NCBI GenBank assembly: GCA_905339405.1
Contig: CAJPGC010000039.1
Location: forward strand, 15,000-78,999
Source of the DNA: an uncultured bacterium
Lineage (GTDB): Bacteria; Desulfobacterota; GWC2-55-46
Length of the DNA stretch: 64,000 nucleotides
Direction: 5' to 3'
Under the pieces are notes generated by a model. The model ran no database searches. It had not been told where the DNA came from and was given only the letters and a program-made list of their open reading frames with translations. The position numbers and the translations under genes were made by a program. Positions 2,722 to 52,840 of the stretch are shown here, one piece after another (positions within the stretch are counted from its first letter, which is position 1; every line of letters starts with the position of its first letter).

Positions 2722-3579
2722 TCAAGACAAAAAAGATGGCTGTATATGGTGTAGAAGAGCCTGCCTTGGTTTTGTCTTTGTCTCTGAGTCTTTCCTGATA
2801 TTTCTTTCCTTGAAGTAAACATCCTGAGGCGTCCGGTAGTCGAGGGCCTGATGGAGCCTCTCCGTGTTGTAGAAGTGAAAGTACCTGGCAAGGGACTCTC
2901 TGGCCTCTTTGACGGTCTCGTAGCTCTTAAGGTAGACTTCTTCGTACTTGACCGTCCTCCAGAGCCTCTCAACGAAGATGTTGTCCATTGCTCTGCCCCT
3001 GCCGTCCATGCTGATGGCGACCCCGAGTTTTTCAAGCCGCTCCGTGAACTCAACGCTCGTGAACTGACTTCCCTGGTCGGAGTTGAAGATGTCCGGGCTG
3101 GAAAGAGAAAGCGCCCTTTCCAGTGCCCTTATGCAGAACTCCGCATCCAGCGTCGTCGAGACCTCCCAGGAGAGCACATAGCGGCTGTGCCAGTCCATTA
3201 TGGCCACGAGGTAGATAAAGCCGCCCTTGAGCCGTATATACGTTATGTCCGTTGACCACACGTGGTCAGGGCGCTCTATGACGACGTCCTTCAGGAGATA
3301 CGGATACTTCTTATGGTCCTTGGCTGGCTTTGAGAGCCACGGCTTCGGATATACGGCCTCCAGCCCCAGGATCTTCATCAGACGCCTTACCCTCTTGCGG
3401 TTTACCATGTAGCCCCGGGTCCTGAGCCACTCCGTCATCTTCGGCACGCCGTAGAAGGGTGTCTTCGTATACTGCTCGTCCAGGAGCGTCATAAGGGCCT
3501 CGTTGAGCTCGTTCCGCTCCCTTGCCCTGTAATAGTAAGCCGCCTTAGAGAGGCCAAGAAGCCGGCACTGGCGCGACAC
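2722..3579 (-). CDS. IS3-family transposase OrfB (DDE integrase core, rve); probably expressed as an OrfAB fusion by a -1 frameshift, so the true frame extends upstream to the A9 site near 3650
   Basis: Motifs DITYIRLKGGFIYLVAIMDWHSRYVLSWEV ... NSDQGSQFTS ... ERLWRTVKYEEVY are the canonical rve/IS3 OrfB signature. Confidence 0.85.
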   Translation of the reverse strand: MSRQCRLLGLSKAAYYYRARERNELNEALMTLLDEQYTKTPFYGVPKMTEWLRTRGYMVNRKRVRRLMKILGLEAVYPKPWLSKPAKDHKKYPYLLKDVVIERPDHVWSTDITYIRLKGGFIYLVAIMDWHSRYVLSWEVSTTLDAEFCIRALERALSLSSPDIFNSDQGSQFTSVEFTERLEKLGVAISMDGRGRAMDNIFVERLWRTVKYEEVYLKSYETVKEARESLARYFHFYNTERLHQALDYRTPQDVYFKERNIRKDSETKTKPRQALLHHIQPSFLS

Positions 3580-3619
3580 AGGTATCTCAGAATTCCTTGG
3601 CTCTATTAAGGCTTTCTTC

Positions 3620-3904
3620 TCACTTGCCGAGGAGCTGAGATTTTTTTTTAAGCCAGTCCAGCTCCACCTTGAGCTGCCCTATTTGCCGGTAAAGCTCATC
3701 TGTCTCCGCCGCGTCTTCTTTTTGTTCCTTTCGCCGCCTGTCAGAGAAAAGGCCGGGGAGGTCCTCCAGAAGCCGCTTCTTCCACTGGCCGATCTGGTTT
3801 GGATGTACCCCGTACTCGCTCGCGATCTGGGCTATCGTTTTCTCGCCCTTGACCGCCTCAAGCGCCACCTTAGCCTTGAACGCCGCATCATGATTCTTCT
3901 TCAT
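3620..3904 (-). CDS. IS3-family transposase OrfA (HTH DNA-binding)
   Basis: 94 aa. IAQIASEYGVHPNQIGQWKKRL is an HTH and a leucine-zipper-like C-terminus follows. The final codons LKKKSQ are encoded by the A9 slippery sequence. Confidence 0.85.
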   Translation of the reverse strand: MKKNHDAAFKAKVALEAVKGEKTIAQIASEYGVHPNQIGQWKKRLLEDLPGLFSDRRRKEQKEDAAETDELYRQIGQLKVELDWLKKKSQLLGK

Positions 3905-3926: not shown

Positions 3927-6605
3927 TTAGCAGGCTACCATACACCAAATACCTTTGTCTAAATTTTGGGGAGTATTATATTCAATTATTTTAATTTTCA
4001 TATGATTACCAAGTTCTAAAGAATAGATGTTCAATCCTAGGTGTGACAATTTTGCGATATAAATGAATCCGACAGCAGCTACGCCAAACTCCACAAAAAC
4101 GCCATAATTTTGAATAGAAATTATTTCACCTTCAATAATTGTTCCCGGAGGATAATCATTTATCAATTTTTCTTCTGCATTCAAATTGGTATGTGATTTT
4201 GCTCTTTCTAAATTTAAAAGTGCCGCAGAAATATCAAACAACTTCTCAAAATGTCCATCCTCCAAATATGCCTCCGGCCTAGAAATAAACTCTGCCCTAT
4301 AACTCTGCAAATATTTTGTTAAATCTTCGGCATTCAAGATACTTGTCTCTTGAGAAAAATGACCCTTGCCTGTTTGATTTGTCATTCTTTTCCAAATCCT
4401 ATCAGCCACTTCGCTGTTCTTATACCAAACATCCTCCGAACAAGCAGCCAAATAATCAATATTATTAACCAAGTCTAGATGAACGTGACCTGCCGGAGAA
4501 ATTGACACCAAATCACCCTCATTAATCTGATCAAGATCTTGGGTTTCAGAAACTACAGCCCCAAATTTCAGTAATTGAGCGAGCTCAATTTGTACTTTGT
4601 CAATGGAATGACCTAAAGACACCATATCTGAGCAAAGATCTATAATTTTATGATATCCTTTTATGCCGCTCGGGCCAAACTTTCTATATCTTTTTTCTAG
4701 CCACTGTAAAATCTCTAATCTAATAAAGGGATCAGGTATAATGTCTTCAGGATAAGAAAGAAATAAATTTTTTACTGACGATCCTGCATCCTGAAAATAT
4801 CTCCTATTTCCACGAAGAATGAGTCTCATTATTATGTGTTTTGGCAACGTATAATCACCTTGCGACTGCCTTATCTTTAGAATTTCATCTGGCGTAATAT
4901 GTCCACTTTTACAGAATTCAAGAAAAATTTCCAGCCCTCTCCTTATATCTCGGCCTGAAATTCCAGTTACAATTCTCCTAAAAAGGCTATCTGTAAAAAG
5001 TGATCTCAAGATGCAAGCCAAATAAATACCCTGCTCAGACCGTGGGTACTCAACTCTCATACCATTAGGGAGCACATAGCTTAATAGTTCCTCATCTTTT
5101 TGTTCTCCTCTCTTCTTATTCATCGTAGCCAAAGCAAAACCAATTCGTTTTGCTATTACCTGTGCTAACAATGGTGGGTCGATCCTGAATACTAAATCCT
5201 TTATTACTGTATCAAGTGGCGGTTCCTTACGGTGATGATCAAATGTGGTATCGCGTATTGGTAGAACCACTAAGCACTCAAACTCATTCTGCATCCACTT
5301 TGCGACTTCAAACATCAATAGCTGATCATCCCTTTTCCTTCTGTCACAATTATCCAGAACTACTACTGCCAATTTGCCTCTGTCTCGACACAGATATCTA
5401 ATATAAGCTTTCAAAGAATGTATTGGATTATTAAGGAGGCTTTGTAGTTCTGACGCAATGAGGTTTTTATATTCTACAGTACAAGGGTCAAATATTGCTG
5501 CCGGCCCTTTCTCAATTTTACGCAGTTCAACAGAATATAACTTTCTAAGTGTATTAAGTTCTTCGAAGTCAATATCAGAATACAATTCCTTAAATTTCGC
5601 CATTAGGCTTTCACAAAGCCATTTATAAATTTCCTCTTTGGACAAAGGGGCCTTATTTAAATCAACAGAAAGCCACACTGTTTTATCTTTTATTTCCCGG
5701 TGCAACGCAACTTCTGTTAAATAATCTATAAAGGTAGATTTTCCACTACCAACTCCACCCACTAATAGTAATATTTCATTTTTTAGACTCCAAAGGTTTT
5801 TAAATTTATCGGTTAGTTCTATTGGTCGTCCAGTATCCTGAATTTCTTTTATGCTAGACATTGTTAAAGGTATTGCCGATTTAATTATTCTTTCTATAGG
5901 GCTTACATGGCTTATTCTCTTTTTTGTAGTCACATAAGCATTTTTAACAACATTTTTTCTCTCATCTAATGTGCTCGGATTGAAAAGATAACGGTAATCT
6001 AGTGCTAATGTTGCACCAAAACTGTTTTGTTCTAATTCTTCATTTTGGACTGCTCGACCACCCAACATATTAATCGGTCTTTTAAATGTGGTGCCGCTTC
6101 TTAGAGAATTTAGTTTTGAATTTATAAAATCTGTCAATATTCTTTTTGACCCAAATTCAAGCAATCTAGAATACTTTTCACCTCCTACAAATATTTCATC
6201 AAAGAAAAGACTTACTTGCTCCTCTACGCTATCAGAAAAAGTTGCTACTATTTTCTTGCCATTAGTGGTTAAAATCTTTTGACAGGGGTTTATGTTATGC
6301 GGGAATTTTGCATTTAATTCTTGCGCATACAATCTAGCTTCTGTGCATGCACTTTCCAGTTCCACACTTGGATGTTTAACCTCGATTATCAAAACAGGCA
6401 ATCCTTGAATAAGTATTACATAATCCGGATAGTATAATTTTGAGCTTTTACCCTTTCCAATTACCAACTGTCTTAAATCAACTTTCGTTCTGAATTCAGA
6501 AGTACTGAACCCAAACCCCAGCGGATCAGGCGCAATAAGCATTTGGATAACAAACTTTTGTTCAACATCGCTTTCATTTAATAAATCTTCTATTTTACAA
6601 AACAT
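3927..6605 (-). CDS. Large island protein (892 aa): N-terminal HsdR-N-type PD-(D/E)xK nuclease-like domain, central P-loop NTPase (Walker A GGVGSGKST, Walker B VVVLDNCD, about 130 aa apart, STAND/KAP-like), helical middle region, C-terminal S1/OB-fold domain; the 3' end is overlapped by the IS3 terminus
   Basis: N-terminus SDVEQKFVIQMLI..LGF...YPDYVILIQGLPVLIIEVKHP fits the type I restriction HsdR N-terminal (HSDR_N) PD-(D/E)xK pattern. LLLVGGVGSGKSTFIDYL and LAVVVLDNCD are the P-loop motifs. C-terminus GTIIEGEIISIQNYGVFVEFGVAAVGFIYIAKLS...MKIKIIEY..LDKG fits the S1 pattern G.V.G.V..I..FGAFV..G..GL.HIS. The locus has a strong RBS (GGGAGGG) and is AT-rich throughout. Confidence 0.7.
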   Translation of the reverse strand: MFCKIEDLLNESDVEQKFVIQMLIAPDPLGFGFSTSEFRTKVDLRQLVIGKGKSSKLYYPDYVILIQGLPVLIIEVKHPSVELESACTEARLYAQELNAKFPHNINPCQKILTTNGKKIVATFSDSVEEQVSLFFDEIFVGGEKYSRLLEFGSKRILTDFINSKLNSLRSGTTFKRPINMLGGRAVQNEELEQNSFGATLALDYRYLFNPSTLDERKNVVKNAYVTTKKRISHVSPIERIIKSAIPLTMSSIKEIQDTGRPIELTDKFKNLWSLKNEILLLVGGVGSGKSTFIDYLTEVALHREIKDKTVWLSVDLNKAPLSKEEIYKWLCESLMAKFKELYSDIDFEELNTLRKLYSVELRKIEKGPAAIFDPCTVEYKNLIASELQSLLNNPIHSLKAYIRYLCRDRGKLAVVVLDNCDRRKRDDQLLMFEVAKWMQNEFECLVVLPIRDTTFDHHRKEPPLDTVIKDLVFRIDPPLLAQVIAKRIGFALATMNKKRGEQKDEELLSYVLPNGMRVEYPRSEQGIYLACILRSLFTDSLFRRIVTGISGRDIRRGLEIFLEFCKSGHITPDEILKIRQSQGDYTLPKHIIMRLILRGNRRYFQDAGSSVKNLFLSYPEDIIPDPFIRLEILQWLEKRYRKFGPSGIKGYHKIIDLCSDMVSLGHSIDKVQIELAQLLKFGAVVSETQDLDQINEGDLVSISPAGHVHLDLVNNIDYLAACSEDVWYKNSEVADRIWKRMTNQTGKGHFSQETSILNAEDLTKYLQSYRAEFISRPEAYLEDGHFEKLFDISAALLNLERAKSHTNLNAEEKLINDYPPGTIIEGEIISIQNYGVFVEFGVAAVGFIYIAKLSHLGLNIYSLELGNHMKIKIIEYNTPQNLDKGIWCMVAC

Positions 6606-7134: not shown

Positions 7135-7212
7135 TTGGTCGGGGCGAGAGGATTCGAACCTCCGGCCCCCGCGTCCCGAACGCGGTGCTCTACCAGACTG
7201 AGCCACGCCCCG
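7135..7212 (-). tRNA. tRNA-Pro (anticodon CGG), CCA encoded
   Basis: Minus strand reads CGGGGCG-TG-GCTC-AGTCTGGT-AGAGC-A-CCGCG-TTCGGGA-CGCGG-GGGCC-GGAGG-TTCGAAT-CCTCT-CGCCCCG-A-CCA. All four stems pair and the anticodon loop is UU-CGG-GA. Closely similar to E. coli tRNA-Pro. Confidence 0.85.
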
Positions 7213-8831: not shown

Positions 8832-10679
8832 CTACTTCACGGCTTTCCCCGGCACCGTGAAATGGAAGGACGACCCGCTGCCCTCGGCTGATTCGACCCA
8901 TATCCTGCCGCCGTGGCGCTCGACTATCCTTTTGCATATCGCCAGCCCCAGCCCGGTGCCGGGATACCTCTTGCCGTGGACGCGCTGGAATATTATGAAG
9001 ACCTTGTCAATGTCCCCCGGGGCTATGCCCACGCCATTGTCCTTCACGGAGAAGACCCAGCCTTCGGCGCTTTCACGGGAGACGACCTCTATGACCGGCT
9101 TCCCGCCGGGCTTCCTGAACTTGATGGCGTTGCCGATGAGGTTCTGCAGGAGGCGGACGAATTGCGCCGGGTCGGCGTAGACAACGGGCAGCTGACCGCG
9201 TTCGACAACGGCCCCGCTTTCTTTTATTGCCGTCGAGAGGTTCTCGAGCGCGCCGTCCAGGACGGCGTTCATATCGACCCTCTCGAAAGCACCGCCAGCG
9301 GTGTTGACTCGCGAGAACTCGAGGAGGTCTTTTATCATGTGCTCCATTCTGGCCGCGCCGTCGACGGCCGATTCCACGAAGCCCTCAGCCTCTTGGTCGA
9401 GTCTTCCGGTAAGCCTCCTTTCTAGAAGACGCAGGTAGCTCGTCACCGCGCGCAGCGGCTCCTGCAGGTCGTGAGAGGCGACGAAAGCGAACTGCTGCAG
9501 GTCGGCGTTCGAACGCGTAAGCTCGTCCAGTACCTTATCGAGCTCCTCTTCGGCCTTCTTCCGCTCGGTTATGTCGCGGTCGATACCCCTGTACCCGCGG
9601 ACGACGCCTGACTTGCCGTAAAAAGGCACGCCGCCGCTTTCGAGCACCACGAGACGGCCGTCCTTCGTCAGGTTCCTGTTCTCAAGGTTTGAGAACGGCT
9701 CGGCCGCGCCCATCACCTTCGCGAAAAACTCCCTTACCCGGGCCGCCTCGCCCTCAGGCATCACGTCGAAAGGCGTCTTTCCGATGAGCTCTTCGGGTTC
9801 GTACCCGAGGATAGAGCGCACCTGCGGGCTGATATAGCTGTAGACGCCGTTTACGTCGACCTCCCATATGATGTCGTTCGTCGTCTCGACGAGGTTGCGG
9901 AACCGCTCCTCTTCGGCCATTATGGCTTCCCGCGCCTTCATGCGCTCGCGTATGTCGACGCTGCCCCTTCGGTAGGCGAACCCTATGCCAGCCATGCCCA
10001 GGACCCAGACGAGCAGATGCGAAGAGACGATAGTGCGGTCAAGCATCGTCTCCTTGGCGAGATAGGGCTTCATCGGCAGAGACACGCTTACACCTCCGCG
10101 AATGTCCCCCACCTTATAACCCTGATGGGCGTGGCACTTGAGGCACCCCTCCTGCGTGACCATCGGCTGCATTAGACGCAGATAAGGCTGCCCGCCGATT
10201 TTCGTGAACTCGACCTTCTCTTTGACTGCCCTGTTCTCGAATGACTTGAGGGCCTCCGCCTCCCAAGCGTCGGGTCTGTTCGCCGGGTTAAGGGGGTTCA
10301 GGCTCGTTATGTGGCCCTTTACGCCGTAAAGCTCGCTGTATTCGGCCATTGCCTGCTTCATGATATAGGCCGGGTTCATGAGGGTGAGCTTCTTGCCTGA
10401 AGGGAGCTCGATGTCCCTGTCGGGTATGTGGCTCAAGTAGGGGTTTGGCGGGGTAGTCTCACTGGGCGGGACGTAAACGCCGCCGTGGTTTGTCGCCCAG
10501 AAGCGGAACGCCTGGTCCTTGTTGAAGGTCGTCAATGCCTCCATTTTGGCCAGCTCGCGGGTATGGTCCCGCACCTGGCGGAGGTTCACGCCCACGGACG
10601 CCCCGGCAAGGGCCGTAAACGCGATTACTATGACGGCGGTCAGCCGCCTCAAATTGTAATATGTCCCTTTACTATGCAT
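8832..10679 (-). CDS. Sensor histidine kinase with a periplasmic DUF3365/Tll0287-like domain carrying a CxxCH haem-c motif, then PAS, HisKA and HATPase_c
   Basis: TM segment near the N-terminus. CLKCH (CxxCH) sits in the predicted periplasmic domain. A PAS domain follows (NDIIWEVD...), then the H-box (FVASHDLQEPLR) and N/G-boxes (GNAIKF.., GTGLGLAICKRIVERHGG). The likely start is the internal ATG (MHSKG...) with RBS GGAG; the longer ORF runs to 10727. Confidence 0.75.
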   Translation of the reverse strand: MHSKGTYYNLRRLTAVIVIAFTALAGASVGVNLRQVRDHTRELAKMEALTTFNKDQAFRFWATNHGGVYVPPSETTPPNPYLSHIPDRDIELPSGKKLTLMNPAYIMKQAMAEYSELYGVKGHITSLNPLNPANRPDAWEAEALKSFENRAVKEKVEFTKIGGQPYLRLMQPMVTQEGCLKCHAHQGYKVGDIRGGVSVSLPMKPYLAKETMLDRTIVSSHLLVWVLGMAGIGFAYRRGSVDIRERMKAREAIMAEEERFRNLVETTNDIIWEVDVNGVYSYISPQVRSILGYEPEELIGKTPFDVMPEGEAARVREFFAKVMGAAEPFSNLENRNLTKDGRLVVLESGGVPFYGKSGVVRGYRGIDRDITERKKAEEELDKVLDELTRSNADLQQFAFVASHDLQEPLRAVTSYLRLLERRLTGRLDQEAEGFVESAVDGAARMEHMIKDLLEFSRVNTAGGAFERVDMNAVLDGALENLSTAIKESGAVVERGQLPVVYADPAQFVRLLQNLIGNAIKFRKPGGKPVIEVVSRESAEGWVFSVKDNGVGIAPGDIDKVFIIFQRVHGKRYPGTGLGLAICKRIVERHGGRIWVESAEGSGSSFHFTVPGKAVK

Positions 10680-10874
10680 GTCTCCGGCCTTGCTGAACGG
10701 CGGCAGCGTTTGGATGAGTGAAAGCAAGGTTTATGCAGCTTACGTAAATTATATCATGCGGAAAGAGGGAGTGACTCTGAAAATCGAAAGTTGCCCGGGC
10801 CCGGAAAGCCGGTGAAAAGAAAAACGGGCGGCAACTTGAGTTGCCGCCCGCCGCCGTCGTTATTTAAAAACAGA

Positions 10875-15042: not shown

Positions 15043-15352
15043 TGATTTGACTACCCCGGCAAGATGTAGGGCCATTATATAGATTATCGGGGCATGAATC
15101 AACCGCAAACCTTAAAGACAGCGTGGAAAAACCGGCTTCGAAAAAAACAATACAGTATTTACAGCTGGCTGAACGGACAAGGCGGTTGTCAGGGGATGTT
15201 ATCAATGGGAAAAACGGGACGCATTTGAGTGAGCAGGTAAGCTCTTTGAACATCGCTCACTCAGGCCGCTCAAAAAGTTCTTGATGCGAGTAGCCGGGGA
15301 AACGAGACGAGATGCGTACTCTCATGTACGACGCAAAGCCGGGAGACGGCGG

Positions 15353-17263
15353 TCAGTTGCTGGCCTTCCTCAACGGCTCTGCCCCCTTGGACCTTCGTAT
15401 TATGGCGTCGACCTCTTCGGCGTCGAGAGACTCGTTCACGATTAGCGCGGCGGCGAGGTCTTCGAGGACGCCTTTGTCCCTGTTGAGCATGGCGTCGGCC
15501 CTGCTTTCGGCCTCAAGCAGCATATTCCTTATCTCCTGGTCCATGAGCCACGCCATGTCCTCGCTGTAGCGCTTCTGGACTGAGATGTCCCTGCCGAGGA
15601 ACGGGTGCTCCTCTCCCCTGCCGAAGTTCAAGGGCCCGACCTTGTCGGACATCCCCCACTGGGCGACCATCTTCTCGGCCAGGCCGGTCGCGTTCTTCAG
15701 GTCGTCGTTGGCCCCGGAGCTCACGTCCCTGAATATGAGCTTCTCGGCGGCCCTTCCGGCAAGGGCCACGGCGAGCCTGTTCATCAGGTAGCTCCTCGGG
15801 TAATAATGCCTGTCTTCCTCGGGGACGAACTGGGTCGCCCCGAGCGACATGCCCCTGGGTATTATCGACACCTTGTGGATGGGGTCTGTGTGCGGCAGCC
15901 CCCATGACACGAGAGCGTGGCCAGCCTCATGGAAGGCGGTTATCCTCTTCTCCTGGTCCGAGAAAGTCTCCTCCCGCTTGGAGCCCATTATGACCTTGTC
16001 CATCGCCTCCTCGAAGTCCCTCGTATCTATCTTCTCCTTGCCCTTTTTCACGGCTTCGAGCGCGGCCTCGTTCACGAGGTTTTCGAGGTCCGCCCCGGTC
16101 ATGCCGGGCGTGCCCTTGGCAATCTTTTCCATGTCGACTTCTGTAGAGAGTTTCTTGTTCCGCGAGTGGACCTCGAGGATGGCTTTCCTGTCCTTCCAGC
16201 CCGGCCTGTCTATGACGATATGGCGGTCGAACCTGCCGGGGCGCAAAAGGGCCGGGTCAAGGACGTCCGGCCTGTTGGTAGCTGCTATCAAGATTATCTC
16301 CTCGTGCGGCTCGAAGCCGTCCATCTCGCTCAAGAGCTGGTTGAGCGTCTGCTCCCTCTCGTCGTGGCCGCCGCCGAGCCCAGCCCCGCGCGTCCTGCCG
16401 ACCGAGTCTATCTCGTCTATGAAAATGATGGAAGGCTTGGTCTCCCTCGCCTTCTTGAACATGTCCCTTACCCTGGACGCGCCCACGCCCACGAACATCT
16501 CTATGAACTCGGACGCGCTAATGCTGAAAAACGGCACTCCCGCCTCCCCGGCGGTCGCCCTCGCAAGAAGCGTCTTGCCGGTGCCGGGCGGGCCTATGAG
16601 GAGTATCCCCTTGGGCACCTTCGCCCCGATGGAAGCGAACCTGCCCGGGTTTTTAAGGAAGGCGACAGTCTCCTGCAGCTCGGTCTTGGCGTTCTCGAGG
16701 CCCGCTACTCCGTTGAACGTGACTCCCGGCTTCTTGACGTTGAAGAGCTTGGCCTTGCTTAGCCCGAAGTTGAAAAGACCTCCCTGGCTTCCCTGCCCTC
16801 CCTGCTGGACCCGCCGCATTATGAAGACCCATACGCCTATTATCAGCACCCATGGCAATATGAGCAGGAAGACCTGCCAGAAGCCCGACCCTCCGGAGGG
16901 CTTTACGTCTACCGACACGCCCCGGCTCTCGAATTCGTTCAATATGCCCGGGCCCTGGAACGGCGGCAGGTAGGCGCGGAAATCCATCGCCCTCACGGGC
17001 TCCTGCCCTTTGACCTGGCTTACCGTGACGGGCGAGATGAACTCACCGGAGACCTCCTCGCCCTCTATGGTGACTGAGCTTATGTTCCCGGCCTCGAGCT
17101 GGTTCCTGAACTCGGTATAGGTTATATTGTGGCGGGCGCCCGCGCCGGTGTCTACCGACTCGCCCCACAGGTAGATGAACGCTCCGAAAAGAATAAGGGT
17201 TATCGCTATTTTCCAGGCAGACCCCCTTTGTCCGCCTCCCGCGTATTTCCTTTCATCAGACAT
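15353..17263 (-). CDS. ftsH: ATP-dependent zinc metalloprotease FtsH
   Basis: N-terminal TM segments, AAA Walker A GPPGTGKT, Walker B IIFIDEID, SRH, and the HEAGHAL zinc-protease motif. Confidence 0.95.
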   Translation of the reverse strand: MSDERKYAGGGQRGSAWKIAITLILFGAFIYLWGESVDTGAGARHNITYTEFRNQLEAGNISSVTIEGEEVSGEFISPVTVSQVKGQEPVRAMDFRAYLPPFQGPGILNEFESRGVSVDVKPSGGSGFWQVFLLILPWVLIIGVWVFIMRRVQQGGQGSQGGLFNFGLSKAKLFNVKKPGVTFNGVAGLENAKTELQETVAFLKNPGRFASIGAKVPKGILLIGPPGTGKTLLARATAGEAGVPFFSISASEFIEMFVGVGASRVRDMFKKARETKPSIIFIDEIDSVGRTRGAGLGGGHDEREQTLNQLLSEMDGFEPHEEIILIAATNRPDVLDPALLRPGRFDRHIVIDRPGWKDRKAILEVHSRNKKLSTEVDMEKIAKGTPGMTGADLENLVNEAALEAVKKGKEKIDTRDFEEAMDKVIMGSKREETFSDQEKRITAFHEAGHALVSWGLPHTDPIHKVSIIPRGMSLGATQFVPEEDRHYYPRSYLMNRLAVALAGRAAEKLIFRDVSSGANDDLKNATGLAEKMVAQWGMSDKVGPLNFGRGEEHPFLGRDISVQKRYSEDMAWLMDQEIRNMLLEAESRADAMLNRDKGVLEDLAAALIVNESLDAEEVDAIIRRSKGAEPLRKASN

Positions 17264-17423
17264 ACTTAGAGTCTATAAGAGAATCCGGCAAAAGCAATGG
17301 GGGGGCGGCAAGGAAGGAAAAGGGGGGATTATGCAGAGTTTTATGATGAAAATGTAGCGAATGTCTTTTTTGAAGTTCTAATAGATATGAGATGTATGCT
17401 CACAAAGAGTTTTACCAAAAACC

Positions 17424-17575
17424 ATGTAACGCGGCTTCCGCCGCTCTCTGTAACAGGGCTCTACGCGCTTTCTTCCTCCCCACCCGCGAACCTAGCCCCT
17501 GAGGTCGCTTCGCTCCCGACTTCCCCGGCTCGGTTCGCCACTCCCTCCCTTAGGCGCGCTCCGCCCTGTTACGGT
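17424..17575. repeat. Intergenic repeat family A, copy 1 (about 150 bp, long imperfect palindrome with GTAACAGGGC / GCCCTGTTAC termini)
   Basis: Near-identical core (CCCACCCGCGAACCT.GCCCCTGA.GTCGCTTCGCTCC...CCCCGGCTCGGTTCGCC) to copies at 39468-39622 and, reverse-complemented, 53063-53215. Confidence 0.7.
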
Positions 17576-17633
17576 GTAAGGTTAAATACAATACAAGTAC
17601 AATTATTCTCCATTTTAGCGGGGCCGTCTTTCA

Positions 17634-18725
17634 TCAAAACGCGAACGCCAGCACCATCTCTATGGCAATGAGTATGAGTATGCCGAGTTCCACGACGTAG
17701 GCCCGCCTGCCGGAGATCTCGTCGTGTATCATGCTGTAGGTGTTCGTTATTATCTGGAGCTTTTCCCTGATGCTCGTCTCCCAGTCGCGGCTCCTCAACA
17801 CGGCCATGAAGGTCCTGTAGATCCTGGCGTAGTAGACGTCCTCGGTGACTTTAAGAGAGTTGTTGACCTTCTCGGTAACCTCGGTTATGTCCGTGACCGT
17901 CCGCATTATCCTCCTGGCGAGCCTCTCGTACTCCCTCAAGCGCAGGAAAGAAGGGCCCCTGCTGCCGGATATGCGCTTGTAGATGGACTTGAGCTCGGAG
18001 TCTATGACCCTGTCGTAGTACCTGAGCTCGAATATCTGGGCGTTGGCGAACTCGAGTATGTCGGGCAGGTCGAAGCTCCCCGACGGGTCTATTACGAGCG
18101 AGTTGTCGACGTGGACGATTATGAGGTCTTCCGGGTAGTAGCTGAAGCTGTGCCGGAGCGTTTCTTCCCTCGTGAACCGGCTCAGTTCCCTGGTCTCGTA
18201 AAGGAGCAGCCTCGTGGGGTCGTATCTCTCGAGGAATTCCCGGACTTTCAGGCCGCCCCCGAGCTCCTCTATGTATATGACGGTGTAGTCTTCGAGAAAG
18301 TCCTCTTTTATCTCCGGGCTGACTATGGCCGGCCCGAGTGAGTCCATCAAGCCGTTGACGTACTCCCTTGCCTTCGCGTCTATCGTCTCGTCGCTGTCGA
18401 GCTCCCTTGCCACCCTCTCCAGGTCGGCCATCTCCGTCCCCGGCGGTATGGCTATGTCAAAGGCGATGGAGAGGACGCCGAAGTCAAAGGCCTTCGCTAT
18501 GACGTTGACGCGCGTCTCGGAGCCGAAATACCCGCTCGAGAACGGGGCCAGCTCGAGCGCGACCGGCGGGTTCGCGAACTCAAGGGCTTTCGTGTAGCCG
18601 TACCTCGAGAGCTTGAATCTCCTGGTGCCGGCCTTCACGCGCTCTTCGGTCCTGGCGAGGTCTATTTCCAGGGCCACGTCGAAGAGCCTGTATACGAGTA
18701 TCCTTCCCCTGCCTATGGAGATCAT
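17634..18725 (-). CDS. Hypothetical protein with a C-terminal transmembrane anchor (possibly DUF155/RMD1-like)
   Basis: 363-aa ORF with a hydrophobic C-terminus (ELGILILIAIEMVLAFAF). No motif I can assign with confidence. It overlaps the upstream hybrid kinase gene by 4 nt. Confidence 0.45.
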   Translation of the reverse strand: MISIGRGRILVYRLFDVALEIDLARTEERVKAGTRRFKLSRYGYTKALEFANPPVALELAPFSSGYFGSETRVNVIAKAFDFGVLSIAFDIAIPPGTEMADLERVARELDSDETIDAKAREYVNGLMDSLGPAIVSPEIKEDFLEDYTVIYIEELGGGLKVREFLERYDPTRLLLYETRELSRFTREETLRHSFSYYPEDLIIVHVDNSLVIDPSGSFDLPDILEFANAQIFELRYYDRVIDSELKSIYKRISGSRGPSFLRLREYERLARRIMRTVTDITEVTEKVNNSLKVTEDVYYARIYRTFMAVLRSRDWETSIREKLQIITNTYSMIHDEISGRRAYVVELGILILIAIEMVLAFAF

Positions 18726-21208
18726 TCAACGCAGTCAGCGGCTGCCGCCGGGAGCGTTATCCTGGCGGCCGTACCGGCTCCGGGAGCGGAGTCGAGCTCA
18801 AGGGAGCCCCTGTGCTCCTTTATTATCGAATACGATATCGAAAGCCCAAGTCCGGTGCCGCCGCGGTCGGATTTAGTCGTGAAGAAGGGCTCCATCACCC
18901 TGTCGAGGACTTCCCTGGCCATCCCGTCCCCTTCGTCCCTGACCTCGATCACTACCTTGCCTTCCTCCTGCCTGGTCGAGACCCTGACGCGCCTTTTCCT
19001 GTCCGGCAGCGCGTGCAAGGCGTTGAGGACGAGGTTTATTATGACCTGCTCCACCTTCTGGCTCGAGCCCCTCACCTTCGGGAGGTCCTCAGCGCAGTCG
19101 ACCTCGAAGGAATCCGTGTACTTGGTTATCTGGTTGCTCAGAATCGACACTGAAGCCTTCACGGCCCGGTTCACGTCGAAACTGCCCTCCAGGCCCGCCT
19201 TGTCCTTGCGCGAGAAGTCCTTGAGGTTGTCGACTATCCCCTTTATCCTCCTCGACCCGTCGGTTATGCCGGCCAGGAGCTCCGGGACCACCTCGCTCAT
19301 CTCGGAGTAAGGCAGGCCGCCCAGGGAGAAATCCCCGTTGTCGCGGTAGTACGTCTCAAGTATCCTGGCCGCGTCCTTCCACGCGTCCGAAAGAAGGGTC
19401 GAGTTGAAGAGGATGAAGTTGTTCGGGTTGTTTATCTCATGGGCAACGCCTGAGGCGAGAGTGCCGATCGAAGCCATCTTGTTCGCGTGGATGAGCTTCG
19501 CCTGGATGTTCCTTGCCTCCTCCTCCATCCTGAGGAGCTCGGTGAGGTCCTTGACGGTGCACAGCACCATCGCGCTCTGCCTTAGGTTTATTACCTGCCC
19601 CCTCAAGGAGACCACCGCCTTCGTGCCGTCCTTCCTCACCGCCTCCGTCCTCTCGAACGAGAAGCCTCCCCGCGTAGAGTAACCCTCTTTCACTTTCACG
19701 CAGACCTCCGGGCCCATGAAACAGGCCTCAGGCATGCCGGTGAGCTCAGCGCGCGTATAGCCGAAGAGCGCCACTGCCGCCGGGTTGGCGTCGATTACGC
19801 GGCAGCCGCCCAGGCCGAGTATCACCTGAGCGTCCTGGTTCTGCTCGAACATTTGCCTGAAGCGCTCTTCGCTTTCGCGCAGGGCCTCCTCGGCCATCTT
19901 CCTCGCGGTTATGTCGCGCTTTATCCCGAGCGCCAGCTCCTTGTCGCCCACCCTCAGGGGCGTTATCGCCATGTCGACCCATATCTCCGAGCCGTCCTTC
20001 CTCCTGAGGCGGACCTCCGGCATATACCCGCCGTCCTTCCACGCGCGCCTGTGCTCTTCTATCTTTCCGATGGCTTCAGGCTGGACGAGGAGACGCACGC
20101 CGGAGGAAAGGAGCTCCTCTTTCGTGTAGCCGAACATCCGGCAGCCAGCGAGGTTCACGTCGAGGTAGTTCCCATCGAGGTCTATGACGAACATCCCGTC
20201 GAGGGCGGAGTCGAATATGGTCCGGAGCCGCTTCTCGCTGTCCCTCATGGCAGCCTCGGCCTTCTTCCTTTCAAAGGACTGCTCGAAGGACTGCAGGGCG
20301 AAGCCGATGTCAGCAGCAAGGCTCTCAAGGAGGTCTATGGTCTTTCCGGCGAAGGAGCCGGGAGAGGAGCTGTAAACGTTCATGCTGCCGAAGACGGCCC
20401 CTTCCGCCAGTATGGGGAAAGAGGCGCACGCCCTGAACCCGAAGGCCCGCGCAGCCTCCCTCCAGGGCGCGTATCTTTCGTCCGTCTCCGTGTCCAGGCA
20501 GACGGCGTGCCTTCCTGTGCGCACGGCGGCCCCTGCCAGACCCATGCCGAACGGCTTTCCATCGGCCCCGTCGTTTAGCGCGGCGAAAAAGCCTTCGGCG
20601 CACCCGGCGTGGCATACCGGCCTTATCGACGCCCCGGCAAAGTCGGCCTTGCCTATCCAGGCCATCATGAACCCGGCCTTCTCGACGAGTATCCTGCAAG
20701 TCTCGGAGAAGACCCTGCCGCTGCAGCTCTCGCGCACGACCATCTTGTCGACTTCAAGTATGGTCTCGAGAAGGCGGTTCAGGAACAATATCTCTTCTTC
20801 AGCCTTCCTTCGGGCGCGCCTGGTCTCGTACTCCCGGAGCTCCCTTTCAACGGCGGGAGGGAGCCTGGAAAGCCTGTCCTTCAATATGTAATCGTCGGCA
20901 CCGGCCTGCATGGCCGTCACCGCGAAATCCTCGCCCATGTAGCCGGAGACTATTATGACGGGCACGTCGAGCCCTGCCGCTCGCACGCTCCTTACGACCT
21001 CGAGACCCGAGAGCAAAGGCATCCGGTAGTCCGCGATGACGAGGTCCCAAACGCCGGCCGAGATGGCTTCGGCGAGGTCCTTTTCGTTGTCCACGCGCCT
21101 GAAGGACATCTCGAAACCGCCGCGCCTCAGCTCGCGCATGATGAATATGAGGTCGTCTTCGGAGTCTTCCGCTATAAGTACTCTTAACGGCCTGATTTCC
21201 TTCGTCAT
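18722..21208 (-). CDS. Hybrid response-regulator / sensor histidine kinase (N-terminal receiver, GAF, two PAS, HisKA, HATPase_c)
   Basis: Receiver VLIAEDSEDD...DLVIADYRMP, GAF-like region, PAS cores, H-box GVAHEINNP, and ATPase boxes (NLVLNALHAL, GTGLGLSISYSIIKEHRGSL). Confidence 0.8.
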   Translation of the reverse strand: MTKEIRPLRVLIAEDSEDDLIFIMRELRRGGFEMSFRRVDNEKDLAEAISAGVWDLVIADYRMPLLSGLEVVRSVRAAGLDVPVIIVSGYMGEDFAVTAMQAGADDYILKDRLSRLPPAVERELREYETRRARRKAEEEILFLNRLLETILEVDKMVVRESCSGRVFSETCRILVEKAGFMMAWIGKADFAGASIRPVCHAGCAEGFFAALNDGADGKPFGMGLAGAAVRTGRHAVCLDTETDERYAPWREAARAFGFRACASFPILAEGAVFGSMNVYSSSPGSFAGKTIDLLESLAADIGFALQSFEQSFERKKAEAAMRDSEKRLRTIFDSALDGMFVIDLDGNYLDVNLAGCRMFGYTKEELLSSGVRLLVQPEAIGKIEEHRRAWKDGGYMPEVRLRRKDGSEIWVDMAITPLRVGDKELALGIKRDITARKMAEEALRESEERFRQMFEQNQDAQVILGLGGCRVIDANPAAVALFGYTRAELTGMPEACFMGPEVCVKVKEGYSTRGGFSFERTEAVRKDGTKAVVSLRGQVINLRQSAMVLCTVKDLTELLRMEEEARNIQAKLIHANKMASIGTLASGVAHEINNPNNFILFNSTLLSDAWKDAARILETYYRDNGDFSLGGLPYSEMSEVVPELLAGITDGSRRIKGIVDNLKDFSRKDKAGLEGSFDVNRAVKASVSILSNQITKYTDSFEVDCAEDLPKVRGSSQKVEQVIINLVLNALHALPDRKRRVRVSTRQEEGKVVIEVRDEGDGMAREVLDRVMEPFFTTKSDRGGTGLGLSISYSIIKEHRGSLELDSAPGAGTAARITLPAAAADCVE

Positions 21209-21278: not shown

Positions 21279-24278
21279 TTATTGAAGAGTAAAATAAAAA
21301 GTGGCTCCCCTGTCCTTTTGGCCAATCGCCCAGATCCTGCCGCCGTGCCGCTGGATTATCCTCTGCACGGTGGCAAGCCCTATGCCGGTGCCGGGGAATT
21401 CCATCTCGGCGTGAAGGCGCTGAAAGGGGTTGAAGAGCCTGTCGGCGTACTTCATGTCGAAGCCCGCGCCGTTGTCCCTCACGAAGTAGACTACCGCCCC
21501 GTCCTCAGCCTTCTCCACGCCTACCTCGATGGACGCCTCTTCTTTTTTCGAAGTGAACTTCCAGGCGTTGCCGACGAGGTTCTCCAGCACCAGCCTCAGA
21601 AGGCTCGGGTCGCCTTTGGCCGCCATGCCCTCCGCTATGGAGAACACGGCCCTGCGCCCGGGTTCGGTCTTCCTGAGATCTTCGGCGACGTTCTCCGCGA
21701 ACGCCGAGAGGTCCACATCTTCCCTCGTTATGCCGGTGCGCATCACGTGCGCAAGCTTCAGCAGGGCGTCTATGAGCTGGCCCATTCTCTGGGAAGCCCC
21801 GCTGACCCTCGCCATGTAGTCGCGCCCGGTGGCGTCGAATTTCTCATGGTATTCCCTGAGGAGTATCCTCGTGAAACCGTCGATTATCCTCAAGGGGGCC
21901 CTGAGGTCGTGGGCTACCGAATAGCTGAACGCCTCGAGCTCCTGGTAAGCCTCCTGGAGCTCCTTTGTACGGTCCTCCACCCTGTGCTCGAGCTCTACGT
22001 TGAGCTTTCGTACCTCTTCCTCGGCCCTCTTCCTCTCGGTTATGTCCTGGACCGTGCCGGACATCTTCACGGCCTTTCCCGACTCGTCGAACTCGACCTC
22101 GCCCTGTTCGTGTACTATCCTCTCAACGCCGTTTCCAAGCACTATCCTGTGGTCCATCGAATACGGCTTCCTGTCGCTCAGCGCCTTGCTCACGGAGCTC
22201 ATCACTGACTCGCGATCGTCCGGGTGCACGTAGCCGAGGAAAGCGTCGTAGGTCGCGCCGAACTCCTGCGGGGCCACGCCGAATATCCTGTATATCTCGT
22301 CGGACCAGCGGAGCTCGTTCGTGGCGATGTCCCAGTCCCAGTTCCCTATGTGCGCTATCCTCTGCGCGTTGGCAAGAGAAGCCTCGCTGCTTCTGAGGGC
22401 CGCTTCCGCCGCCACCCTGTCAGTTATGTCCTGGACGGTGCCGGAAAGCTTCACCGGAATATCGTCGATGCATACGACCTCGCCCTCCTCGTGCATGAAC
22501 CTCTCGGCGCCGTCGGGCCTTATTATCTTGTAGTCCATCGAATAGGACCGGCCGGTCGAACAGCTCGTCTCTATGGTCCTCAGTACCATGTCCTTGTAAT
22601 CAGGATGGAGGACCCTCATGAAGTCGTCGTACCCGTTCGTCCATTCCTCTTTCCTGATGCCGAAAAGGGAGTACGTCTCCTCGGACCAGGAGCCTTTCAT
22701 GTTCGTGAGGTCGTACTCCCAGCTGCCCAGCCCCGCTATCCTCTGCGCGTTTGCAAGAGAAGCCTCGCTTCTGCGGAGGGCCTCCTGGGAGCGCTTGAGC
22801 TCGGTTATGTCGGTCGAGATGCCTGCCAGTGCGTACGGCCTCCCGCTCTCGTCCAGCAGCCTGAACTTCACTGAAAGGTATATGCGCCTGCCGTCGAACG
22901 GGACGGTCTCCTCGAACTCCAGCGGAGCGCTCGACTCCAGGGCCTTCAGGTCGTTCTCCCTGAACACGTCCGCCACTTCCCTTGGGAACAGGTCGTGGTC
23001 GGTCTTGCCGCGCACGCCTTCATTGCTTACGTGAAAGAGGGCCTCGAATATCCTGTTTATGAAAATATAGCGGCCCTCAGGGGTCTTCAGGTACACGACG
23101 TTTATCGTGTTGTCCATTATGGCCCTGAACCTCGCCTCGCTTTCGCGCAGGGCCTGGTTCCGTTCCTTGACCTGCCTGGCCATGTTGTTGAACGAGTCCG
23201 TAAGGACGCCTATCTCGTCCTCGCTCTCGACCGGCAGGGATATGTCGTAGTTCCCGGCTGCAATCTCCCTGGAGGACGCGGCGAGCCTGCGGAGCTGCAC
23301 TACAGCGACCCTGTAGAAGAACGCGACGAGCCCGGAGATGAGGGCTATTGCCACTATCATGGTCACCAGGCCGTAAAGCCGTATCTCGCGCACCGGGCGC
23401 AGGGCCTCTTCTGTATCGACCTCGGCGACGAACACCCACCTGTACGGCAGCATGCATATCGAGGAGCCCGCAACGTCAACGCCCCTGTAGTCGGCGTAAT
23501 AGCCGGAGTAGTCCTGCCCCTTCTCGAAGCAGGCCTCCACGGGGGCGCTGGAAACCTTCTGTTTGAGGGGCGGCATCGGCGCAAGCGGGGACTTCGTCAG
23601 CATGAGCCTGTCCCTGTTCACCAGGTAGATGTCCAGGCTTTTGTATGAAGTAAGGGCGCTCCACTTTATGTCTTCCTCCGTCAGCTCAGGAGACCCCATG
23701 AAAACGTCTTCGAGCTTCTCGAGCGTCACGAAGCCGACGATGACGCCCAGGAGCTTCCCGTCGGAGCGGCTGTGCACAGGGGCGGCCACGGCAAGCTCGG
23801 GGACTCCCCTGAGCCCCTTTTCGCGCATTGAAATGGTTATGCCCTCTATCCCGTTCATGAAAAACTCTTCCTCGCTCTGAACGGTCCCGATCGCGCCGCT
23901 GTTCGTGGAGGCGATAGTGACTCCCGAGGTGTTTATGGCGGATATCCTGAAAAAACTCCTCTCAAGCGGGAACTTGTTCGCGATTATATACTCGCTGAGA
24001 AGGCGGCTTTCCGAGGCGTTGGCCGCTACAGCTTTCTCGAACTCGTCCCTTATGACCCCGTCGCTTGCGAAGTCTATGACCCTGTTCCTCATTATCTCGA
24101 AGAAAAGGAATAGTTCTCCGGCCCTGGCCTCGGATATGCTCCTGAGGTCGTCGAGTATTAGTTCCTCTACGTGTTTGCGAGTGGAATTGAGGCTGAGGAA
24201 AAAAGCGATGATGATTGGCAGCAGGACCGCGATGAACGCCAGAAGTATCTTGTATGCGAGGGGGAAGGACCTTTTCAT
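21279..24278 (-). CDS. Membrane sensor histidine kinase (periplasmic sensor domain, HAMP, three PAS, HisKA, HATPase_c); paralogue of 59242-62280
   Basis: TM helix after MKRSFPLAYKILLAF, HAMP (VAVVQLRRLAASSREIAAGNY), repeated PAS cores (AQRIAGLGSWEYD / AQRIAHIGNWDWD), H-box SYSVAHDLRAPLR, G-boxes. Start chosen at MKRSF; the ORF track extends to 24320. Confidence 0.8.
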   Translation of the reverse strand: MKRSFPLAYKILLAFIAVLLPIIIAFFLSLNSTRKHVEELILDDLRSISEARAGELFLFFEIMRNRVIDFASDGVIRDEFEKAVAANASESRLLSEYIIANKFPLERSFFRISAINTSGVTIASTNSGAIGTVQSEEEFFMNGIEGITISMREKGLRGVPELAVAAPVHSRSDGKLLGVIVGFVTLEKLEDVFMGSPELTEEDIKWSALTSYKSLDIYLVNRDRLMLTKSPLAPMPPLKQKVSSAPVEACFEKGQDYSGYYADYRGVDVAGSSICMLPYRWVFVAEVDTEEALRPVREIRLYGLVTMIVAIALISGLVAFFYRVAVVQLRRLAASSREIAAGNYDISLPVESEDEIGVLTDSFNNMARQVKERNQALRESEARFRAIMDNTINVVYLKTPEGRYIFINRIFEALFHVSNEGVRGKTDHDLFPREVADVFRENDLKALESSAPLEFEETVPFDGRRIYLSVKFRLLDESGRPYALAGISTDITELKRSQEALRRSEASLANAQRIAGLGSWEYDLTNMKGSWSEETYSLFGIRKEEWTNGYDDFMRVLHPDYKDMVLRTIETSCSTGRSYSMDYKIIRPDGAERFMHEEGEVVCIDDIPVKLSGTVQDITDRVAAEAALRSSEASLANAQRIAHIGNWDWDIATNELRWSDEIYRIFGVAPQEFGATYDAFLGYVHPDDRESVMSSVSKALSDRKPYSMDHRIVLGNGVERIVHEQGEVEFDESGKAVKMSGTVQDITERKRAEEEVRKLNVELEHRVEDRTKELQEAYQELEAFSYSVAHDLRAPLRIIDGFTRILLREYHEKFDATGRDYMARVSGASQRMGQLIDALLKLAHVMRTGITREDVDLSAFAENVAEDLRKTEPGRRAVFSIAEGMAAKGDPSLLRLVLENLVGNAWKFTSKKEEASIEVGVEKAEDGAVVYFVRDNGAGFDMKYADRLFNPFQRLHAEMEFPGTGIGLATVQRIIQRHGGRIWAIGQKDRGATFYFTLQ

Positions 24279-24460
24279 TCTCACCGTGACCGGGAAGACG
24301 CATCCAGCGCGCCGTTCCATAGCTTTTTTTCGGATACTTTCGTGATGACGGGACGCCGCCGGCCAGGCTCACTTGTTTTGAAGCCCCGCGCAAAAAGCCT
24401 CGCGGAGCCTTGGAGGACTGAGAAGATTCCGGAGTCAGTCCGCTCGCTTGACCCCGAAAT

Positions 24461-39366: not shown

Positions 39367-39467
39367 AAAAGCCGTAACCGTAACCGGTCACGGCTTTGTG
39401 AACGCGCTTTAGCAAGGCTTTCATGAAACTTTTCGGTCGCTGCCGCGCAAAGAGAACTGTTCCGTAA

Positions 39468-39622
39468 TACCGCGTAACGCGGCTGCCGCCGCTCTCTGTA
39501 ACATGTTCTGCGCGCTTTCCGCCTCCCCCACCCGCGAACCTCGCCCCTGAAGTCGCTTCGCTCCAACAGCCCCGGCTCGGTTCGCCGCTTCCTCCGCAAG
39601 AAGCGCTCCACATGTTACGGCG
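39468..39622. repeat. Intergenic repeat family A, copy 2 (termini GTAACATGT / ACATGTTAC, compensatory to copy 1)
   Basis: Shares the core (CCCACCCGCGAACCTCGCCCCTGAAGTCGCTTCGCTCC...CCCCGGCTCGGTTCGCC) with copies 1 and 3. Confidence 0.7.
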
Positions 39623-39675
39623 CTTGGGTTAAAGACAAAGAAAAAGATGAAATTAAATAAAGCGGTCAAACAGAA

Positions 39676-51045: not shown

Positions 51046-51172
51046 CTCAGGCTGTTCAAAAAGCTCCATATGCTAGGCGTCGAGGAGCGAGCCGCGGAGC
51101 ATACTTGAGAAGTATGTGAGCAGGCGAGCGACGCTTACAACAACGCAAATGAAACTTTTTCAGCAGCCTGCT
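51046..51172. repeat. Intergenic repeat family B, copy 1 (about 125 bp; terminal inverted repeats GCTGTTCAAAAAGCTCCATATGC / GCAAATGAAACTTTTTCAGCAGC, central hairpin CATACTTGAGAAGTATG)
   Basis: Matches 62990-63112. Flanks and inner GCGTCG/CGACGC stem are conserved, while the central hairpin has a different sequence. Confidence 0.6.
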
Positions 51173-52648: not shown

Positions 52649-52734
52649 GAGAATGGTGCGACAGCGCTCTCCTCACTGAAAAAAAAATGAAATGAATAGC
52701 TTTGTTGGTTGGGTTGGCGTAGCGTAACCCAACA

Positions 52735-52840
52735 AAAATGTCATTCTGAGCGAAGCGAAGAATCACGGCTTTTATAAACAGCCGCGAGCATTGCGACGAG
52801 ATTCTTCGGTCGCTACGCTTCCTCAAAATGACAACAAAAC
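52735..52840. repeat. Hairpin-forming repeat C (GTCATTCTGAGCGAAGCGAAGAATC ... GATTCTTCGGTCGCTACGCTTCCTCAAAATGAC). Its right arm recurs at 53295-53335
   Basis: Imperfect inverted repeat read directly. The second partial copy (AGATTCTTCGGGCGCTACGCTCCCTCAGAATGACAA) lies on the far side of repeat A3. Confidence 0.45.

Follow-up and report, generated by a model that had tools for sequence, protein, structure and literature searches.

A stretch of 64,000 nucleotides from an uncultured bacterium of the Desulfobacterota (contig CAJPGC010000039.1, positions 15,000 to 78,999; in the following, the window means this whole stretch) carries a long structured repeat three times between its genes, which raises the question of what kind of element this is. 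An initial annotation, made from the sequence without database searches, had read it as a hairpin-forming repeat, either a family resembling miniature inverted-repeat transposable elements (MITEs) or repetitive extragenic palindromes (REPs), or a structured small RNA. We find that these repeats, here called family A, are real and undescribed, but not a categorically new kind of element. Tentatively, and with somewhat less than even confidence, we regard them as non-coding, non-autonomous dispersed repeats akin to REPs, to bacterial interspersed mosaic elements (BIMEs) and to hairpin-forming REP doublets (REPINs), which may be copied or recognised as single-stranded DNA (ssDNA) by an enzyme encoded in trans.

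A dispersed family of intergenic repeats

The window holds three full copies of family A and one internally deleted copy, all of them intergenic. A search of the 64-kb sequence with an nhmmer profile built from related copies recovered the three full copies at the places already annotated, with E-values of 1e-51 to 1e-52, far beyond chance; their alignment has a mean column identity of 88%. The conserved core is longer than the approximately 150 bp first proposed: it covers positions 17415-17598 in copy 1 (E=1e-52), 39463-39645 in copy 2 and 53038-53220 in copy 3. Coordinates are window positions unless they follow an L number, which denotes a public locus, and the strand that we take to be folded, the G-rich one, is the minus strand in copies 1 and 2 and the plus strand in copy 3.

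Scans of public genomes and metagenomes yielded, after removal of duplicates, 26 distinct full-length copies with unrelated flanks. Fifteen true copies came from an exact-pattern scan of species-representative genomes, their hosts being Deltaproteobacteria metagenome-assembled genomes (MAGs; GWA2_54_12, NC_groundwater_375) and short contigs in unrelated bins, and an independent scan of metagenomes with a 3'-anchored pattern found 23 further loci that hold the element. The seven loci left over turned out to be either matches by chance or short, unrelated hairpin repeats. Matches to the strict pattern number between one and five per MAG.

No match to family A was found in viral contigs by pattern scan, nor in plasmids, phages and E. 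coli genomes by BLAST with copy 2 as query. At its gathering thresholds, Rfam yielded only a tRNA in the window, and in seven element-carrying loci no Rfam match overlapped the element at E<=5. A literature search by sequence string returned no description of family A repeats. We rejected a coding element, as many copies contain stop codons in all frames, at lengths of 182-185 nt.

Conserved fold and covariation

Single copies fold into nested helices. Because the RNAalifold consensus missed one of these, P3, we specified the structure by hand on an alignment of the copies (alignment A3), as a mini-hairpin hp0, the helices P1, P2 and P3 and an apical hairpin, and tested it by counting pairs. 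Standard pairs occupy 91.7% of the pair cells, compared to 33-43% when the partners are slid by 1-3 columns, and the observed covariation score was reached by none of 500 shuffles.

In copy 1, the arms of P1 lie at 17450-17459 (GTAACAGGGC) and 17563-17572 (GCCCTGTTAC), those of P2 at 17463-17468 (ACGCGC) and 17554-17559 (GCGCGC), and those of P3 at 17486-17497 (GCGAACCTAGCC) and 17527-17538 (GGCTCGGTTCGC); the apical hairpin is at 17503-17517 and hp0 at 17431-17444, both read on the minus strand. Copy 2 has a variant P1 (GTAACATGT/ACATGTTAC, 39498-39506/39610-39618). In copy 3, P1 is formed by 53067-53076 and 53177-53186, hp0 lies at 53192-53205, and the partner arm of P3 has suffered a 4-nt deletion. 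The inverted segments of the initial annotation, GTAACAGGGC/GCCCTGTTAC in copies 1 and 3 and GTAACATGT/ACATGTTAC in copy 2, are thus present as described, but these GTAAC/GTTAC arms, which had been taken for the termini of the element, are the two arms of an internal helix.

The proposal that pairing is preserved despite sequence change extends to the whole family. The varying pair of P1 (45-156) is G:C in 17 of the 26 copies, U:A in 8 and broken in only one, and P1 of copy 2 shows an additional private change from C:G to U:A. In P3, pair 80-123 is U:A in 12 copies, C:G in 7 and A:U in 4, and pair 82-121 is U:A in 9 and G:C in 8. With 26 copies and conserved pairing, the description of family A as a dispersed intergenic hairpin repeat with compensatory changes, REP-like in a broad sense, is borne out. 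The states of the covarying pairs delimit three subfamilies, types I, II and III, of which copy 1 represents type I. One copy (L006) is a recombinant that joins the 5' half of one subfamily to the 3' half of another and has broken pairs; some of the covariation is therefore inherited with the subfamily and not reselected in each copy. A pattern of conserved loops and variable stems was considered and rejected, the column entropy being 0.49 in loops and 0.50 in stems.

The probable folded strand

Folding energies do not separate the two strands, so that our choice of strand builds on non-canonical motifs. Folded as RNA, the C-rich strand of copy 1 has z = -7.2 and its G-rich strand z = -3.8. 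Within the helices, 45 of 57 tandem mismatches are 5'-GA/5'-GA when the G-rich strand is read, and TC/TC when the C-rich one is. Tandem sheared G.A pairs next to G:C pairs are a stable motif in DNA and in RNA, whereas tandem pyrimidine mismatches are unstable. The GA/GA mismatches fall at four sites: the centre of P2 (type II), two positions of P3 (one each for types I and III) and an invariant site in the apical hairpin. As read on the G-rich strand, GCGCGC has become GCGAGC in both P2 arms of type II, replacing Watson-Crick pairs by a tandem G.A. When the C-rich strand is read, pair 51-149 appears as G:C in 14 copies and as A.C in 11, equivalent to G:C and G.U on the G-rich strand; before this pair is added and the dubious pair 57-143 dropped, plain G.U and A.C counts are near parity (9 vs 10).

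The small hairpins follow the same strand. On the G-rich strand, the apical 15-mer (GGGAGCGNAGCGACC) reads GG-GA-GC-GNA-GC-GA-CC, a tandem G.A below a GNA triloop, in which N is the sole variable base (A in copy 1). The hp0 of copy 1 reads GCGGC-GGAA-GCCGC with GTAAC on either side; across the family its loops are GGCA, GACA, GGTA, GGAA and GTCA, varying only at the two middle bases. A further hairpin in an optional 3' module has the loops GGCA, GGAA and GGGA, and GACA in the deleted window copy. All three small hairpins match the core d(GCGNAGC)/d(GCGNNAGC) on the G-rich strand and vary only at its N positions. As DNA, this mini-hairpin, whose motif rule we apply here, has an extraordinary stability that is far lower in RNA; it occurs at primase-dependent ssDNA origins, in ssiA and in the single-stranded promoters of phage N4 (PMC13037366). 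We take the likeness of family A to it as a structural resemblance, which would not by itself demonstrate the same function.

Since most tetraloops are non-GNRA, the DNA rule describes the loops better than the RNA rule does. The tandem GA/GA mismatches, the G.U at pair 51-149 and the loop rule together led us to regard the G-rich strand as functional, with ssDNA as its likelier active form.

Ends, modules and turnover

Read on the G-rich strand, a family A unit of about 185-235 nt has a T-rich 5' end (TTTTGTTTTGTCTTTAAC), after which P1-P2-P3 form an irregular hairpin of ~125 nt with the apical hairpin as its cap, followed by one or two GC-GNNA-GC mini-hairpins (hp0 and the optional terminal module) and a short tail. 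About half of the copies carry the additional 45-50 nt of this module, composed of a semi-variable 14-nt spacer, the hairpin GCGCGGCAGCGCGC and the tail AAAAGGCTTT; it provides the 3' subterminal hairpin of types I and III, whereas type II copies end after hp0, which takes this place in them. In the window, the extension is complete in copy 2 (39415-39462, minus strand; hairpin 39435-39448, GCGCGGCAGCGACC on the G-rich strand) and in copy 3 (53221-53270, plus strand; hairpin 53236-53249, GCGCGGCAGCGCGC). Copy 1 appears to retain a degenerate spacer and module remnant at about 17385-17414 on the minus strand, a weak match seen when its flank (tgtatgctcacaaagag) is compared by eye with that of copy 2 (gctgccgcgcaaagag).

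The two ends of the unit, TTTTGTTTTGTCTTTAAC and GCGCGGCAGCGCGC-AAAAGGCTTT, are unrelated to each other, so that the element is asymmetric and lacks terminal inverted repeats. The 3' end is preceded, at a distance of about 10 nt, by a GC hairpin, while at the 5' end there is only the large P1-P3 structure. Inversion is limited to the P1 arms of 9-10 nt, which enclose an asymmetric C-rich/G-rich core with no second inverted palindrome. The pentamer GTAAC is invariant at the foot of the 14-nt hp0 palindrome, and P1 likewise begins with GTAAC. Inspection of the flanks by eye, with fuzzy element boundaries, showed no target-site duplication, and a consensus scan of 17200-17750 found no intrinsic terminator; hp0 and the module precede GTTAC... 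or AAAAGG.

The same ends also occur on other cores. Two partner families, A' (~200 nt) and A'' (~155 nt), share the T-rich 5' end and the 3' hairpin module with family A, but have different G-rich cores with long-range helices of their own. They are found tail-to-tail with family A (L011:100-385, L017:4650-4857, L025:1878-2040, L037:2225-2385, L047:3385-3545 and L035:155-317), with further tandem copies in L025, L037 and L047. Four family A copies (L009 at 2242-2307, L019, L030 and L039) have an insertion of ~85 nt (TATCTCGCCCCATCCCTGGGGC...CTGCAAAAATTG) between P1 and P2, and the hybrid copy in L035 contains some of the inserted sequence. Judged from these sequences, the insertion and the hybrid would indicate an exchange of modules between repeat families.

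Half-decayed and deleted copies are common; in addition to the hybrids (L006, L035), we found internally deleted copies in L021 and at 52885-52955 of the window. The latter, on the plus strand, joins the 5' end of the G-strand (TGTATTTAACACATACACTGTAACAGG) to its 3' end (ACGGTATTTTGG, spacer and hairpin GCGCGACAGCGCGC), thus keeping both ends, and it corresponds to a partial nhmmer match at 52883-52915 (E=0.0012). This copy accounts for the 23-bp direct repeats at 52930-52952 and 53234-53256. They do exist, but they are not flanks that were inserted or duplicated together with copy 3, as had been suggested: the second belongs to the 3' hairpin module of copy 3 itself and the first to that of its deleted neighbour.

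At orthologous sites we observed both absence and change of subtype. In a relative whose Rpe is 89% identical (L049), the gap between slp and rpe, which holds copy 2 in the window, measures 67 nt and the element is absent; the contigs of other relatives stop 31 nt past the rpe stop codon, exactly where the element starts in the window. Orthologous spacers with flanks of ~78-82% identity hold copies of different subtypes (L021/L033 and L034/L037). An apparent 70-nt indel between L027 and L048 was discarded, since it lies inside a gene. The 67-nt spacer of L049 (748-814) contains a GC-rich hairpin of its own with a GCGAAGC core (GGGCGAAGCGGC).

Short hairpins of related design lie close to copy 3 in the window. 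Repeats of GTCATTCTGAGCGAAGCGAAGAATC occur at 52741-52766 (+), 52790-52832 (-), 52955-53010 (-) and 53285-53330 (-) and read ATTCT-GA-GC-GAA-GC-GA-AGAAT, with the tandem G.A and GNA triloop of the family A apical hairpin; similar units are present in the unrelated metagenome contigs L026 and L046. Another hairpin, TTGGGTT-GGCGTAGCGT-AACCCAA at 52706-52735 (+), has a GCGTAGC mini-hairpin core in its loop and a related unit in L047.

Gene context and orientation

All 26 public copies lie outside predicted genes. In the window, copy 1 is situated between two minus-strand genes, a gene for a 363-residue protein (stop 17634) and ftsH (start 17263), copy 2 between the convergent genes slp and rpe, and copy 3 between cysS and a PilZ gene, which are likewise convergent and leave a spacer of 788 nt. 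This corrects the earlier placement of all copies after convergent or terminating genes. The G-rich strands of copies 1, 2 and 3 begin 36, 31 and 390 nt past the stop codon of a same-strand gene, that of copy 2 being the rpe stop codon at 39676.

The T-rich 5' end of copy 3 is abutted by the hairpin CCCTCTCC-CACAAGT-GGAGAGGG (53016-53038, plus strand; read by eye). Together, hairpin and T-rich end look like an intrinsic terminator for transcription in the direction of cysS, facing the element. A comparable hairpin abuts the T-rich end in about 8 of the 26 copies, copy 3 included.

Gene calls based on the length of open reading frames (ORFs) were unreliable and were replaced by calls based on codon usage, by which 16 copies have one orientation relative to genes and 5 the other. 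Convergent and divergent contexts are uninformative by construction; in the informative tandem-gene contexts the ratio is 6 vs 3, and we therefore see no orientation bias relative to genes.

Host range

The closest relatives of the window's proteins are labelled Deltaproteobacteria bacterium GWA2_55_10, GWB2_55_19 and Thermodesulfobacteriota, and on the sequences available family A appears to be confined to an uncultivated groundwater lineage of the Deltaproteobacteria/Thermodesulfobacteriota. Repeat-carrying contigs of 1-3 kb (L004-L009, L011, L013, L014 and L018 from CAJPFF/CAJPFK/CAJPFZ; L005 from JAUQYA) are found in bins assigned to Geobacteraceae, Methylophilaceae, Burkholderiaceae and Albidovulum. 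Because the host range of the repeat is otherwise narrow, we suspect mis-binning, and these contigs look like fragments broken at repeats. Several contigs terminate inside or at the repeat; family A breaks metagenome assemblies and appears to seed mis-binned short contigs.

Evaluation of alternative explanations

In the explanation that we tentatively prefer, the element would act, and would have been multiplied, as ssDNA, and an enzyme encoded in trans, most plausibly an HUH/Y1 nuclease-transposase (a REP-associated tyrosine transposase, RAYT, or an IS200-like enzyme), would recognise the hairpins of the G-rich strand together with GTAAC at their feet. Recognition of the folded G-strand would account for the upkeep of pairing by compensatory changes and for the same two ends on unrelated cores. 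The strand signature, in which Watson-Crick pairs give way to tandem G.A and loops vary at N only, is unusually clear and points to ssDNA as the selected form. If such an enzyme exists, the shared ends with alternative cores would offer a natural system for studying the recognition of folded DNA.

Several observations weigh against this. We found no HUH/Y1 gene among the 19 window ORFs scanned with Pfam, nor, as a weak negative, by tblastn in the 371 kb of fetched loci; an IS200-like hint that tblastn gave in L032 proved to be a uvrC shadow frame. Either strand folds more stably than its shuffled versions, at similar z-scores, and GNA/GNNA loops and tandem G.A pairs are also found in RNA. As the covarying states define three subfamilies, there are only about 4-5 independent compensatory events. 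Lagging-strand targeting would predict a bias in orientation relative to GC skew, but the observed 11 vs 6 is not significant. No conserved tetra- or pentanucleotide directly precedes the T-rich end, whose boundary is uncertain by a few bases. A precise empty site was not seen either: the L049 spacer is unalignable, and exact-protein look-ups with PilZ, Slp and DUF2400 gave no polymorphic strain. Finally, copies 1 and 2 have no terminator of the upstream gene ahead of their G-rich strand, which is therefore probably transcribed as well.

This last point leads to the main rival, a cis-acting RNA element of the 3' untranslated region, which we consider unlikely on balance. Transcription of the upstream gene would run on through the element, giving an mRNA tail with the G-rich sequence, whose stable hairpins would block 3' exonucleases or modulate read-through, a role in mRNA protection or read-through that has been proposed for REP, ERIC and BIME elements as well. 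It would explain why all three G-rich strands in the window trail a same-strand stop codon, at the distances given above, and why six or seven copies elsewhere begin 15-38 nt past a co-oriented one; furthermore, the fold is stable as RNA and pair 51-149 shows G:C to G.U on the G-rich strand. Yet the orientation in tandem contexts is only 6 vs 3, with convergent contexts silent, and the terminator-like hairpins with T-runs ahead of about 8 of 26 copies, among them copy 3, would halt the upstream transcript. Nor do the loops favour RNA, as most tetraloops (GGCA, GACA, GGUA) are non-GNRA, and there is no terminator consensus within the element. The RNA could instead come from a multicopy stand-alone small RNA gene, such as a regulator with C-rich CCUCC loops on the C-rich strand or GGA-rich loops on the G-rich strand. 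A structured unit of ~180 nt, with CCUCCC twice in the internal loops of one strand and GGGAGG on the other, would suit such a gene, but we judge it highly improbable: the element and its edges showed neither a sigma-70-like promoter nor an intrinsic terminator, no Rfam match reached E<=5, loop columns are no more conserved than stems, the loop motifs agree more with DNA than with RNA rules, decayed and deleted copies are common, and an orientation bias relative to genes is missing.

Two rivals place the function in DNA without a single-strand transposase. A host-recruited structural site, immobile today, could have been selected at many intergenic positions as a single-strand initiation or priming signal or to bind a nucleoid or topology protein, with gene conversion keeping the copies alike. 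The GCGNAGC/GCGNNAGC mini-hairpins of primase-dependent ssDNA origins, ssiA and N4 ssDNA promoters (PMC13037366) lend it some appeal, as do copies that persist at orthologous sites across species with flanks of ~78% identity and the hybrid or recombinant copies, which suggest gene conversion. Against it stand the absence of the element at one orthologous site (L049), the tolerance of half-decayed and deleted copies, and the lack of an orientation bias relative to GC skew. Systems of this kind are also not known to use dispersed chromosomal repeats of 200 nt, and we regard this explanation as improbable. A classical MITE, the deletion derivative of a DDE-transposase insertion sequence (IS) with terminal inverted repeats and target-site duplications, would agree with the size of ~200 nt, the intergenic location and the multiple copies, and an IS3-family element is present in the window at 2722-3904. 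However, the ends of family A are asymmetric and do not form an inverted repeat, inversion being confined to internal segments; no target duplication was seen, the apparent 23-bp direct repeat belongs to the element, and the IS3 copy has no similarity to it. A MITE in this classical sense, raised by the initial annotation, is thus not supported, and we rate it as most improbable. Compared to these, the ssDNA repeat handled by an enzyme in trans remains our preferred, tentative reading. A variant of it, which we find distinctly unlikely, would unite A, A', A'' and the short ATTCT-GA-GC-GNA-GC-GA-AGAAT hairpins in an undescribed class of elements with one-strand DNA mini-hairpins and tandem sheared G.A, either handled as ssDNA by an enzyme or used by the host as chromosomal single-strand signals (for priming, restart or exclusion of SSB), and distinct from ordinary REP/RAYT systems.

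Readings of the element as a sigma-70 or sigma-54 promoter, IHF site, G-quadruplex, attC site or CsrA sponge were dropped on inspection by eye, as the respective motifs are not conserved. For an integron attC site in particular, CTGTAAC and GTTACGG each break two positions of RYYYAAC...GTTRRRY, and the copies are solitary and lie between housekeeping genes.

Other features of the window

The IS3-family element (2722-3904, minus strand) is a pair of orfA with an HTH_Tnp_1 domain and orfB with an rve domain. It adjoins a low-GC (36%) ORF of 892 amino acids (3927-6605, minus strand) with HSDR_N, AAA/KAP NTPase and S1 domains and a tRNA gene (7139-7212, minus strand), and the region is probably an integrated island or a defence gene. 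Another intergenic repeat family, D13 (AGGCTGYTCAAAAAG...GGCGTCGAGGAGCGAG), occurs at 51049-51091, 63002-63044 and 15263-15305, the first two copies being 91% identical. Most of the long direct repeats reported by the repeat finder (families D1-D11) stem from large paralogous PAS/HAMP sensor histidine kinases at 21279-24320 (-) and 59242-62364 (-), and also at 8832-10727 and 18722-21208.

Comparison with known systems

Family A shares with the enterobacterial repetitive intergenic consensus (ERIC, or intergenic repeat unit, IRU), Correia (NEMIS), RUP and BOX elements a unit of 100-200 nt near gene ends that is often co-transcribed and folds into a long imperfect hairpin. These elements are near-palindromic over their whole length or have terminal inverted repeats with TA duplications. 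Family A differs from them in having neither trait and in its strongly strand-asymmetric base composition.

The ends of family A are closer to those of IS200/IS605 derivatives (PATE-type) and other HUH single-strand transposons. These share with it asymmetric ends without terminal inverted repeats, the lack of target duplication, a 3' subterminal hairpin that is GC-rich and ~10 nt away from the end, strand-specific structure, and varied interiors between the same ends (PMC6006769, PMC3333891). Unlike IS200/IS605 elements, family A lacks a small hairpin near its 5' end as a counterpart to the 3' one and has no conserved target tetranucleotide in the left flank, and neither tnpA, tnpB nor an autonomous copy was seen in our material. 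For the mini-hairpin motif d(GCGNAGC)/d(GCGNNAGC), the known settings are ssDNA phage origins, ssiA and N4 promoters, and dispersed repeats of chromosomes are not among them.

REPs are defined by a short conserved motif 5' of the hairpin foot, by strand-specific recognition as ssDNA and by the need for irregularities in the stem (PMC3333891, PMC3337134). Compared to REP, BIME and REPIN elements with their RAYT (TnpA-REP, a Y1 HUH enzyme) in Enterobacteria, Pseudomonas and Stenotrophomonas, family A is much longer (185-235 nt against 30-40 nt for REP and ~90-110 nt for REPIN), and its interior, in place of two inverted copies of a palindrome, is a G-rich core that is asymmetric and has large internal loops rich in purines. 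Its motif is GTAAC and not GTAG, it has no similarity to E. coli repeats, and no RAYT was found in the window ORFs examined or in the 371 kb of loci. In other respects family A resembles them. Both are intergenic, multicopy and non-coding and form a hairpin from a single strand; GTAAC followed by GCGGC-NNNN-GCCGC in family A is similar in architecture to the GTAG and imperfect palindrome of REP, with the motif at the 5' foot in each; and both maintain stem complementarity despite sequence variation, conserve stem irregularities, form mosaics and persist at orthologous sites (PMC3333891, PMC3337134, PMC3116915). Dispersed structured repeats of this kind are well studied in a few cultivated proteobacteria, and family A extends the phenomenon to an uncultivated groundwater lineage.

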